In this document: one piece after another, positions 27,440 through 29,386 of the stretch | Layout: every line of letters begins with the position of its first letter | How positions within the stretch are numbered: position 1 is the stretch's first letter | Virus genome (UHGV): UHGV-0074812 | Length of the DNA: 29,386 nt | Reading direction: 5' to 3' (one strand) | From: a virus | The notes under the pieces: model-generated | The model's database searches: none | What the model was told of the DNA's origin: nothing | The model's input: the letters and a program-made list of their open reading frames with translations, nothing else | Program-made: the position numbers and the translations under genes

Positions 27440-28090
27440 ATGAAAACTCAATTGATGGGAGAGCGCATTCGCGCTCGGAGAAAAGAACTCAAGATCAGGC
27501 AGGCCGCACTTGGAAAGATGGTCGGCGTGTCTAATGTTGCCATATCTCAGTGGGAACGCTCTGAGACAGAGCCAAATGGAGAGAATCTTCTCGCCCTGGC
27601 TAATGCGTTGAAGTGTTCCCCTGACTATCTGATGAAAGGAGAGGAAAGTCTTTCAAACATTGCCTATCACAGTAGGCATGATCCAAGAGGGTCATACCCT
27701 CTGATTAGCTGGGTGAGCGCAGGATGCTGGATGGAAGCTGTAGAACCATATCATAAGCGTGCAATAGATAACTGGTACGATACAACCGTAGACTGTTCAG
27801 ACGATTCGTTTTGGTTGGACGTGAAGGGAGACTCAATGACGGCTCCGGCCGGTCTCAGTATCCCTGAAGGAATGATAATACTCGTCGATCCTGAAGTAGA
27901 GCCGCGTAACGGGAAACTGGTAGTTGCAAAGCTCGAAGGAGAAAACGAGGCAACTTTCAAGAAGTTAGTTATTGATGCAGGCAGGAAGTTTCTAAAACCA
28001 CTTAACCCACAATATCCGATGATCGAGATCAACGGGAACTGCAAAATCATCGGCGTAGTTGTCGATGCAAAACTAGCAAACCTTCCATAA
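27440..28090 (+). CDS. c2: C2 repressor (P22 c2 / lambda cI family, 216 aa, HTH plus LexA-like peptidase domain)
   Basis: MKTQLMGERIRARRKELKIRQAALGKMVGVSNVAISQWERSETEPNGENLLAL...DSMTAPAGLSIPEGMIILVDPEVEPRNGKLVVAKLEGENEATFKKL closely parallels P22 C2. Confidence 0.9.
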   Translation: MKTQLMGERIRARRKELKIRQAALGKMVGVSNVAISQWERSETEPNGENLLALANALKCSPDYLMKGEESLSNIAYHSRHDPRGSYPLISWVSAGCWMEAVEPYHKRAIDNWYDTTVDCSDDSFWLDVKGDSMTAPAGLSIPEGMIILVDPEVEPRNGKLVVAKLEGENEATFKKLVIDAGRKFLKPLNPQYPMIEINGNCKIIGVVVDAKLANLP

Positions 28091-28091
28091 G

Positions 28092-28112
28092 GGGGCATTC
28101 GCCCCTTTTTTT
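28092..28112 (+). terminator. Intrinsic terminator after c2 (ggggc-attc-gcccc plus T7)
   Basis: Perfect GC stem 28092-28105 followed by ttttttt. Confidence 0.7.
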
Positions 28113-28129
28113 ATTTCCTTTAAAAATCA

Positions 28130-28215
28130 AAGCCAAACTTAAGTTACGAAAGAAAATTTAAGTTTTCTTCAAAAATACTCTTGACCATTAATTAAAGAGA
28201 TCTTAAATTTAAGCC
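28130..28215 (+). promoter_or_regulatory. OL/PL region (operator palindromes and candidate PL -35 TTGACC / -10 TAAATT)
   Basis: Palindromes aacttaagtt (28136-28145) and cttaaatttaag (28202-28213); TTGACC at 28181-28186 with 17-nt spacer to TAAATT at 28204-28209. Confidence 0.5.
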
Positions 28216-28254
28216 ATCAGCAGGACGCTGGTAGCCAAACGGAACAGATTGGCA

Positions 28255-28295
28255 GGCTCTTTAACATTGATGGAATTGTCCCGCCGAAATGCGGG
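28255..28295 (+). promoter_or_regulatory. nutL (boxA ggctctttaa, boxB hairpin cccgc-cgaaat-gcggg)
   Basis: Same boxB 16-mer as at nutR, in the orientation of PL transcription, upstream of N-like gene. Confidence 0.6.
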
Positions 28296-28438
28296 AACCA
28301 AAGAGTAGTTGGCTTTGGGATTGGATGAATGCGCAGGCTGATGCGCGCAGGAGAGCTTCGGGAGAACAAGGTGCCTGTAAATAAGCCGGAGTTCAGCACC
28401 GGCCATCCAATCGCCAAAGTCAATCATCGGAGGTCAAC

Positions 28439-28744
28439 ATGGCAGTAGTCATTACATATCTGGCTGACGATAACGCCAGAAATCGCCGCAGAGCACGCAG
28501 ACAGGCTCAACGTGAACAGGCAATGCAAGAGCAGCGACTGGCGCGAAAAATTGCGCTAAAGCTCTCTGGTTGCGTCAGAGCAGATAAAGCAGCATCACTC
28601 GGAAGCCTTCGCTGCAAGAAGGCAGAAGAAGTCGAGCGTAAACAGAACCGTATTTACTACCGCAAGCCACGCAGTGAAATGGGTGTGACTTGCTCAGGCC
28701 GCCAGAAACAACGCGGAAAATCAATTCCAGCTTATTACGATTGA
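28439..28744 (+). CDS. N: N-like transcription antiterminator (101 aa, N-terminal arginine-rich motif)
   Basis: N-terminal ARM DNARNRRRARRQAQREQ; GGAGG RBS; first gene downstream of PL/nutL. Confidence 0.65.
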   Translation: MAVVITYLADDNARNRRRARRQAQREQAMQEQRLARKIALKLSGCVRADKAASLGSLRCKKAEEVERKQNRIYYRKPRSEMGVTCSGRQKQRGKSIPAYYD

Positions 28745-28752
28745 GGTGAGCC

Positions 28753-28890
28753 ATGCTCAAGAAAGTCAAACGCCGACTTTACAAAGAAGGTAGATATTCA
28801 TGCCATTTGCCAAAATGCGACACAGCAAAATGGAGTGTCGATGATTGGTGTAACTGGATAGATAGATACGGAACTTGGTGGGATAAATAA
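28753..28890 (+). CDS. Hypothetical 45-aa Cys/Trp-rich protein (not in ORF track, under 60 aa)
   Basis: Manual translation MLKKVKRRLYKEGRYSCHLPKCDTAKWSVDDWCNWIDRYGTWWDK; RBS ttGAGGTGAGcc before ATG, the same motif as the next gene. Confidence 0.4.
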   Translation: MLKKVKRRLYKEGRYSCHLPKCDTAKWSVDDWCNWIDRYGTWWDK

Positions 28891-28944
28891 CAGGTAACTT
28901 AAGCGGATTTATTTTCGCAGCAAACCACTTATTTGAGGTGAGAT

Positions 28945-29208
28945 ATGGACGAGAAAATTAAATCATTGAAGCCAGGAATTGTTATCAGAGACATAAGTGG
29001 TTATTACGATACAGAGACATATGATATTTTATATGTGCATGCAGATGGAAAATGTCAGTATTCGAACGACATTTTTAATAATAAAGGCGATGCCGAAATT
29101 GCTGCCACCACAGTTAATAAAGAGCTCGTAGCTAACGAGTCGTGGGATTATTTTATGCCATCATCCACTTCTATGAACTGGAAAGTGGTTTTGTACATTC
29201 CATCATAA
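28945..29208 (+). CDS. Hypothetical 87-aa protein in early-left operon
   Basis: ORF with RBS tttGAGGTGAGat before ATG; AT-rich codon usage; no family recognised. Confidence 0.55.
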   Translation: MDEKIKSLKPGIVIRDISGYYDTETYDILYVHADGKCQYSNDIFNNKGDAEIAATTVNKELVANESWDYFMPSSTSMNWKVVLYIPS

Positions 29209-29249
29209 TTGTAGCTGCCGTTCAAAAATGAAAGTAAATCTAACATCAC

Positions 29250-29277
29250 AGGCCGCATAGTCGGCCTTCTTTTGGCA
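29250..29277 (+). terminator. Intrinsic terminator in early-left operon (aggccg-catagt-cggcct plus tcttttgg)
   Basis: 6-bp stem followed by T-rich tract, directly downstream of the 87-aa ORF. Confidence 0.6.
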
Positions 29278-29386
29278 TAAACAACAGAATAAACACTGCA
29301 CTGTGTATTCATTCCAACGAGTGAATACACTGAGCAATGTCGCTCGTAACTAAACAGGAGCCGACTTGTTCTGATTATTGGAAATC

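Follow-up and report, generated by a model that had tools for sequence, protein, structure and literature searches.

Boundary sequences (bsq) of lambdoid phages are short conserved stretches at the boundaries of unrelated modules, a concept that reportedly goes back to work by Clark et al. on HK620 in 2001; our literature search for "boundary sequences" returned only papers that cite the concept. In lambda, a segment carrying orf28 and ral occupies the slot between the antitermination gene N and the sequence intergenic to ral and ea10, and this slot of the early-left (pL) operon is a known accessory-gene region. Silas et al., who screened 200 genes, assigned orf184 to the accessory region that holds ral and found that it triggers the gop-beta-cII abortive-infection system; ral itself (their orf87), orf60 and orf47 were also screened (bioRxiv 10.1101/2023.04.06.535777). 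Here we describe the corresponding slot in UHGV virus genome UHGV-0074812, a stretch of 29,386 nucleotides (nt) that we refer to as the window, in which two small open reading frames (ORFs) of 45 and 87 amino acids (aa) follow an N-like gene.

The original prediction, made from the sequence of the window, held that the two ORFs are unknown genes of the early-left operon, that an identical translation-initiation motif precedes each of them, that an intrinsic terminator follows, and that they sit where lambdoid phages keep host-takeover genes. Direct reading of the sequence, the ORF list and an exact motif search bore out the ORFs, their coordinates and the shared motif. From the comparisons below, we consider it very probable that these are two genuine cargo genes, associated with a duplicated end-of-N junction, in the known ral accessory hotspot of the pL operon of a P22-like prophage.

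The shared motif and the end of N

The motif, TTGAGGTGAG, occurs exactly twice in the window (28741-28750 and 28933-28942), each time 2 nt before an ATG, whereas simple arithmetic gives an expectation of about 0.06 exact copies of this 10-mer. Within it, all seven bases of GAGGTGA can pair with the 3' end of 16S rRNA, and six bases separate GAGG from the ATG. Thus, by sequence, the proposed initiation signal is a genuine strong Shine-Dalgarno sequence. As a bare heptamer, GAGGTGA is found three times in the window, a count no higher than chance, and the signal therefore lies in the position of the motif and in the identity that extends beyond it.

The idea of two separate initiation signals did not survive this extended comparison, which identified the motif as a duplicated end-of-N junction. 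At the first copy, the stop codon of the N-like gene, whose product ends in ...GRQKQRGKSIPAYYD*, is embedded in the Shine-Dalgarno sequence, and 8 nt separate it from the start codon of the 45-aa gene; this form of the junction (GATTGAGGTGAGCC) is present in 59 of the 80 viral contigs that carry the gene. The second copy, which we call the linker, contains the codons cgc agc aaa cca ctt att tga (RSKPLI*) and shows a 33-nt identity to genuine N-end junctions. In at least 40 contigs, full-length N proteins that end in ...SKPLI* and have arginine-rich motifs of the lambda or P22 type stop at the TGA within the TTGAGG of this junction. Because the first copy, the second copy and the true N ends align, the two motif copies share, on this sequence evidence, a single origin in the end-of-N junction.

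The linker is widespread and stands in many contexts. A 19-mer of it, TTATTTGAGGTGAGATATG, was found in at least 120 viral contigs (IMG/VR), and a search for the whole 32 nt found it in 698 of 5426 complete E. coli genomes, at up to four places in a single genome. Its upstream contexts are of at least six kinds, the commonest being the 3' end of N itself, and among the viral-contig matches listed it precedes at least 12 unrelated ORFs, while about 12% of its copies directly follow the start of bsq4, the boundary sequence described below. The TTGAGGTGAG junction is thus the same short sequence at junctions of non-homologous modules in many phages, as is typical of a boundary or mosaic linker. 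It behaves like the lambdoid boundary sequences, yet it is not annotated as one for this region in the Sf6 record and, unlike a plain boundary sequence, it combines the coding 3' end of N and the N stop codon with the Shine-Dalgarno sequence and start codon of the gene that follows. Lambda has the same 5' linker, diverged to CCACTATTTAAGGTGATATATG.

Alignment with Sf6 locates the junction as a breakpoint. Homology between Sf6 and the window runs from inside N through the 45-aa gene, a 54-nt spacer, the second TTGAGGTGAG and its ATG, stops at 28952, a few bases into the next gene, and restarts at 29249, at the terminator. HK620, with an H-19B-type N, has a different, analogous N-end junction (GGCGAGGTAATTATG), and the linker is therefore not universal among lambdoid phages.

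Several further observations concern the junction and the N ends. In some alleles, a deletion has fused the 45-aa frame to the relic N tail, giving a product that ends in ...WWERIYFRGKPLI* and putting the stop codon back inside the Shine-Dalgarno sequence of the next gene; eight contigs (e.g. L035, and also among L136-L215) encode a 54-aa variant of this kind, fused in frame and ending in ...GTWWERIYFRGKPLI*. The likeness of the two junction copies extends into the first six codons of the genes behind them (28741-28770 compared with 28933-28962, 77% identity over 30 nt in register; MLKKVK and MDEKIK), which may reflect chance or selection for A-rich initiation regions. In the phages examined that have the 45-aa gene inserted behind N, the C-terminus of N is remodelled to PAYYD* rather than PLI*. 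In 41 viral contigs (e.g. L013), a relic of about 50 nt of a phage-21-type N 3' end (MTCVGRQKMKLGSKPLI*) comes after the apparent 3' end, out of frame, of an H-19B-type N gene, which suggests that N-specificity modules may also be swapped at a breakpoint inside the conserved C-terminal region of N.

Coding status and families of the two ORFs

The product of the 45-aa ORF, MLKKVKRRLYKEGRYSCHLPKCDTAKWSVDDWCNWIDRYGTWWDK, belongs to Pfam family DUF5484 (PF17583), which it matches over profile positions 3-41 of 43 with 44.5 bits, against a gathering score of 27 (E 1.2e-11); its length lies within the 42-48 aa of stand-alone members, and it also matches PHROG 1871 (E 1e-21). The gene 36 protein of Sf6, encoded in the same place directly after N, is 96% identical, and the Sf6 record notes its similarity to T4 orf55.4. 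A homolog is likewise annotated in the mEpX1 record. The family of this gene, listed as unknown in the original prediction, was thus already known from Pfam and from the annotated Sf6 gene 36.

Searches with tblastn found homologs in 1053 phage records. Eleven of these are from lambdoid or P22-like phages and hold close copies; over 1000 others are from T4-like phages that infect Escherichia, Klebsiella, Enterobacter and Yersinia, and their homologs are approximately 50% identical. T4 gp55.4, about 50% identical and of the same length, has in common with the 45-aa protein the core G-x-Y...P-x-x-D-T-x-K-W-S-V-x-D-W...I-D-x-x-G-x-W. Ten residues (G13, Y15, P20, T24, W27, D31, W32, D37, G40 and W42) are invariant in Sf6, T4, KP27, CIP9 and a C-terminal tail in phage CB4, and so span lambdoid, T4-like and Pectobacterium-phage sequences. 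The lambdoid clade differs in having three cysteines and two extra tryptophans that T4-like members lack, and in its location in the pL operon of temperate phages, in contrast to the 55.x early cluster that holds the T4 gene.

The pattern of substitution is that of a coding sequence under constraint. Among 22 lambdoid nucleotide alleles from the 80 viral contigs, we counted 9 synonymous and 11 non-synonymous distinct changes, corresponding to a ratio of non-synonymous to synonymous rates (dN/dS, omega) of approximately 0.26, with a synonymous excess at a binomial p of 0.0036. The frame is kept in these relatives, one truncated allele of 38 aa aside. In a time-resolved omics study, T4 gp55.4 is classed as "early-RNA_early-Protein" (PMC9697503, supplementary files 4 and 6), and the DUF5484 family is therefore translated. 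A literature search for DUF5484 returned no papers, a general search for T4 55.4 gave no relevant match, and a paper on T4 55.2 is silent on 55.4. The 45-aa gene is present in 145 of the 5426 complete E. coli genomes, always as a single copy, and has no annotated feature in 40 of 40 sampled RefSeq E. coli genomes annotated with PGAP.

The 87-aa ORF is a rare orphan. It matches PHROG 33140 over its full length (residues 1-87 to profile positions 1-88 of 88, E 1.2e-48), and an exhaustive HMMER scan of 1.84 billion representatives gave 15 matches, of which about 10 are true homologs (79-117 aa). Three long repeat proteins among the matches (P0040, P0045 and P0048) were rejected as repeat-inflated artefacts. 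Homologs at 37-45% identity align with 14 invariant residues; those that are 41-45% identical come from three other prophage contexts, where they are in the early-left region beside an S24 repressor or N, and another is found in the lytic Klebsiella phage KB57. The protein is acidic (isoelectric point 4.6, net charge -5.4). Its AlphaFold2 model (predicted local distance difference test score, pLDDT, 83.6) has three strands, two helices and one strand, and a fold search with this model matched only its own homolog from KB57. No match to the 87-aa ORF was found in Pfam, NCBIfam (E<=1) or PADLOC, and the test for the Ral family (Pfam PF11058) gave no sequence match.

Taken as sequences, both ORFs are genuine, conserved protein-coding genes. 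The G+C content of the 45-aa gene (40%) and of the 87-aa gene (36%) is lower than that of the window (47%) and of N (51%), which suggests a foreign origin, or horizontal acquisition, of the cargo.

The cargo slot between linker and terminator

Megablast of the window identified it as a P22-like (Lederbergvirus; HK620/CUS-3/Sf6-type) E. coli prophage. The stretch is present at 100% identity in the chromosomes of E. coli MS1657 and VTB96929v, and in MS1657 it is followed downstream by genes for a 322-aa protein, cIII, kil and recT, as in a classical early-left operon. Thus, the ORFs lie between N and cIII/kil/recT, in agreement with the proposed operon, and the host-takeover type of location also holds, since the slot is the accessory region of ral and orf184. 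In both chromosomes, PGAP (NCBI) annotated N and the 87-aa ORF as "hypothetical protein" and did not call the 45-aa ORF. The features of the region are listed in Table 1; the order of a cI-like repressor gene, a pL-like promoter and N is also that of Sf6, HK620 and lambda.

Table 1. Positions of the features around the two ORFs in the window
Feature	Position	Strand	Sequence or basis
cI-like S24 repressor gene with terminator	27440-28090		upstream of pL-like promoter
pL-like early-left promoter	28181..28209	+	TTGACC-17-TAAATT; promoter scan
N-like antitermination gene, 101 aa	28439-28744	+	PHROG 271, E 5e-36
Junction copy 1	28741..28755	+	TTGAGGTGAGCCATG; N stop TGA (28742-28744) inside Shine-Dalgarno GAGGTGA
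DUF5484 gene, 45 aa	28753-28890	+	Pfam PF17583, PHROG 1871
Junction copy 2 (linker)	28916..28947	+	GCAGCAAACCACTTATTTGAGGTGAGATATG; relic N 3' end, Shine-Dalgarno and ATG
Acidic orphan gene, 87 aa	28945-29208	+	PHROG 33140
Terminator-like hairpin and T-rich tail	29250..29275 (stem-loop 29250-29267)	+	AGGCCG-CATAGT-CGGCCT
Conserved 3' flank (bsq4 / lambda ral-ea10 intergenic homolog)	29280..29386	+	lambda alignment, Sf6 annotation

The slot holds different genes in different phages. Behind the linker we found ORFs for proteins of 156, 107, 83, 118, 62, 60, 56, 53 and 52 aa, orf28, a transmembrane (TM) protein and the 87-aa gene. In 68 of the 80 viral contigs with the DUF5484 gene, this gene is followed, mostly after the same 54-nt spacer, by the linker and one of six cargo types: orf28 with or without ral (35 contigs), the 156-aa protein (12), the 83-aa protein (11), the 87-aa protein of the window (5), the TM protein (3) or the 60-aa protein (2). 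The 107-aa orf184 protein and further ORFs stand behind the same linker in other contexts. Four linker cargos were in the screen of Silas et al., namely ral, orf184 (the 107-aa protein), orf60 (the 83-aa protein) and orf47 (the TM protein); the DUF5484, 87-aa and 156-aa genes are outside that set of 200. Pfam searches with nine alternative cargo ORFs returned only DUF7167 for one of them, apart from matches below threshold.

In Sf6, the second motif precedes an unannotated acidic ORF of 28 aa that overlaps ral and corresponds to lambda orf28. Orf28 and ral appear, from these sequences, to travel as a pair, because orf28 is the commonest cargo after the DUF5484 gene. The Sf6 ORF (L002, NC_005344, 1746-1832) encodes MEEEFEEFEEHPQDVMEQYQDYPYDYDY, with a net charge of -12, overlaps the start of ral, and is identical to annotated lambda orf28 (L216 1072-1158, - strand). 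The phage of the window has neither orf28 nor ral, and its cargo, the 87-aa gene, is unrelated to them in sequence and in predicted fold.

The 156-aa cargo is a basic protein (MTKSWSVPFPESETEH...; L011 1246-1716) and is the commonest behind the linker, with 54 of the 121 matches listed, which makes its gene an abundant one of the early-left region; it has no match in Pfam or PADLOC and was not among the genes in the Silas et al. screen. In E. coli SCU-124 (L008 1246-2093) two cassettes stand in tandem: that of the 87-aa gene, then the terminator, the bsq4 start and a third TTATTTGAGGTGAGATATG copy, and last the 156-aa gene. Strain 266917_2 carries the 156-aa cassette alone.

Downstream of the 87-aa gene, a G+C-rich hairpin with a 6-bp stem (five G-C pairs) and a 6-nt loop is followed by the tail TCTTTTGG / UUCUUUUGG, which reads as a U tract in RNA, so that by sequence the predicted intrinsic terminator is in place, with modest stability. 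The hairpin is conserved directly after the cargo genes in Sf6, SCU-124 and 266917_2. Its assignment to Sf6 tL2A was dropped, as tL2A maps just beyond the end of the window. From 29233 to 29386 the window is 90% identical to a lambda segment that spans the ral 3' end and reaches into the sequence between ral and ea10, and it is nearly identical from 29280 on; the same flank is annotated as "bsq4 boundary sequence" in the Sf6 record. Part of a 687-nt query, consisting mostly of this 3' flank, is found in about 2249 of the 5426 E. coli genomes, and the whole 687-nt segment in only 6 of them.

The 3' flank contains a further, strong and conserved hairpin (29293-29340, core stem 29303-29330), whose stem is 12 bp long; at -18.9 kcal/mol (z -5.1), it was equalled by none of 200 shuffles. 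Lambda has a nearly identical segment. The hairpin lacks a T tract after it and so is no obvious terminator; it may serve in RNA processing or stability. A search of 28000-29386 against Rfam gave no credible match.

The N-like gene (L001 3740-4045) is labelled only "hypothetical protein" or "regulator" in RefSeq. Its match to Pfam N_peptide is below threshold (E 0.002), in contrast to its strong match to PHROG 271, and its 3' part is homologous to N of Sf6 and lambda. The arginine-rich motif at the N-terminus of its product (NARNRRRARRQAQREQ) is unlike those of lambda, P22 and phage 21.

Origin and possible roles of the cargo

Two simpler accounts of the locus were considered. If one or both ORFs were non-coding chance frames in an intergenic leader, their shortness and the absence of the 45-aa ORF from the PGAP annotation of all 40 sampled genomes would be expected. 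However, the family matches and cross-family conservation of both ORFs, the frames intact in all but one of 80 contigs and the protein-level evidence for the T4 homolog already contradict this account, which we regard as close to untenable. The two 10-mers might also be strong ribosome-binding sites without a shared history, alike by chance or because selection favours GAGGTGA, a heptamer fully complementary to the 16S rRNA 3' end whose bare count in the window is no more than chance. Convergence is contradicted by the long identity of the second copy to true N ends, where RSKPLI* is still in frame with the TGA, by the real N stop inside the first copy, by the alleles that fuse DUF5484 in frame to the relic tail, and by the recurrence of the linker in 698 genomes; its probability appears slight.

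What the proteins do is harder to say, and three proposals were weighed. The original prediction counted three cysteines and five tryptophans in the 45-aa product, correctly, and took a CxxxxC pair and a Trp cluster as signs of a small metal- or membrane-binding peptide. Retention of C17 and C33 by more distant temperate relatives, and the existence of small early-left peptides such as Kil, would favour a metal-binding or a membrane-active, Kil-type peptide; kil is, however, annotated as a separate gene downstream in the identical prophage. In T4 gp55.4, L, G and I stand at the positions of C17, C22 and C33, most T4-like members also lack the cysteines, and most lambdoid alleles, the commonest included, have Q for H18, so that the four conserved ligands of a zinc-binding mini-protein are lacking. 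W27, W32 and W42 are conserved across DUF5484 and probably form the core of the fold. The protein is hydrophilic (grand average of hydropathy -1.14, net charge +4.6, 17 of 45 residues charged), hydropathy analysis found no hydrophobic stretch or membrane segment of the sort that a Kil-like or holin-like peptide would need, and no Kil or zinc-finger match was found in Pfam. AlphaFold2 gave a confident, compact helix-strand-helix-strand model (pLDDT 90.6), and the product is thus predicted to be a soluble alpha/beta mini-domain, which makes a metal- or membrane-binding peptide very unlikely. A second proposal takes DUF5484 as a portable module associated with replication, contacting DNA or a replisome factor of host or phage. 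Pectobacterium phage CB4 (Schitoviridae; NC_048654, L005 2501-2590) has a DUF5484-like segment fused in frame to the C-terminus of its DNA polymerase; the segment lies 3' of the DNA_pol_A domain, at residues 841-863 of a translated 866-residue stretch (Pfam E 5e-4, tblastn E 7e-4). All ten invariant residues are kept in this family-A polymerase tail, and an annotated DNA polymerase of a second Pectobacterium phage, phiA41, covers another match. In addition, the N-terminal helix of the stand-alone protein is basic (KKVKRRLYK), and T4 55.4 is an early gene of the nrd/55.x cluster. Nevertheless, the fusion match scores below the Pfam gathering score (20.1 compared with 27 bits), the gene neighbours of T4-like copies are not conserved, and no structure match was found; a replication-linked binding module is a hypothesis that we hold to be rather unlikely. 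The third proposal concerns the 87-aa protein, which could stand in for Ral or be some other factor against restriction or host defence, binding a host immunity protein right after infection. It occupies the exact slot of orf28 and ral in Sf6, N7 and SfI, in a region recognised for counter-defence accessory genes; it is acidic, as are most alternative cargos; it precedes the first terminator-like site and so is probably immediate-early; and its distant homologs keep an early-left position and occur also in a lytic Klebsiella phage. Set against this, the protein shows no likeness in sequence or fold to Ral, Ocr, ArdA or any solved structure and no PADLOC match, the gene was not covered by the Silas et al. 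screen, and such regions also hold exclusion or defence genes and abortive-infection triggers, so that position leaves the direction of action unfixed. We view this role as a tentative possibility of fairly low probability.

Our preferred explanation remains that of two cargo genes around a duplicated end-of-N junction. The low-G+C DUF5484 gene would have entered directly behind N, leaving the junction on both sides; the first copy would still end N, and the second would be a non-coding relic that gives a Shine-Dalgarno sequence and an ATG to the next gene. The linker of about 31 nt on the 5' side and the terminator with bsq4 on the 3' side would then bracket unrelated cargo in related phages, and homologous recombination at these flanks, presumably general or phage-encoded (Red/RecT), could move it. 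From the breakpoints in Sf6, SCU-124 and 266917_2, we infer preferential recombination at the linker. By analogy only, the arrangement resembles integron gene cassettes, with variable single-gene cargo, conserved flanks, one promoter and, in SCU-124, a tandem array; it differs from them in having no integrase and no attC-like site, and is not a member of that class.

Expression would follow from the same layout. The strong Shine-Dalgarno sequence and its six-base spacing should allow efficient initiation, and the N stop codon lies so near the ATG of the DUF5484 gene that the two genes are probably translationally coupled. Because no terminator-like site was found on the + strand from 28109 to 29250, and the pL-like promoter is the only sigma-70-like site that the promoter scan detected on this strand upstream of both ORFs, the two genes would be transcribed together with N as soon as infection or induction begins, at a stage that does not yet require antitermination, and would be silent in the lysogen. 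Given this early timing, the early class of the T4 homolog and the neighbouring genes, the most likely role of both proteins would be early host takeover or counter-defence through protein binding. DUF5484 would then have a target that is shared by lambdoid, T4-like and N4-like enterobacterial phages.

Several points weigh against this picture. The linker could be conserved simply for the C-terminus of N and the strong Shine-Dalgarno sequence. Transcripts might end by Rho-dependent termination before they reach the ORFs behind N, and the hairpin at 29250 is weak (-9.7 kcal/mol, z -1.7). Translation of the two ORFs in lambdoid phages is predicted from their sequences, and the few close 87-aa alleles have about 5 non-synonymous compared with 2-3 synonymous changes, too few to bear on selection either way. 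Finally, neither protein matches a known fold, defence model or anti-defence model, so that function is deduced from position and analogy: sequence searches against solved structures found no match for either protein, none was found for the 45-aa model by structure, NCBIfam matched neither ORF, and the PADLOC-DB defence models gave no match at E<=1 for both ORFs and two alternative cargos.

A broader reading would join these threads. The linker and bsq4 would form an integrase-free cassette system that swaps single immediate-early counter-defence genes by homologous recombination and gives each of them translation coupled to N, and DUF5484 would be a portable binding domain directed at one conserved enterobacterial target and used by three unrelated lineages, temperate lambdoid, virulent T4-like and N4-like phages, in the last as a DNA polymerase tail. 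We offer this as speculation, with the odds well against it.

The known mosaicism of lambdoid phages is not overturned by these results; the stretch is an ordinary example of it, with one under-annotated DUF5484 member and one rare orphan. A conserved 45-aa gene with a detected early T4 homolog nevertheless passes unannotated in the sampled RefSeq genomes. The linker GCAGCAAACCACTTATTTGAGGTGAGATATG provides a sequence handle for harvesting the immediate-early accessory genes of lambdoid prophages, in a region that has already been the source of Ral and of the abortive-infection trigger orf184, and the 87-aa, DUF5484 and commoner 156-aa genes are candidates for counter-defence screens.

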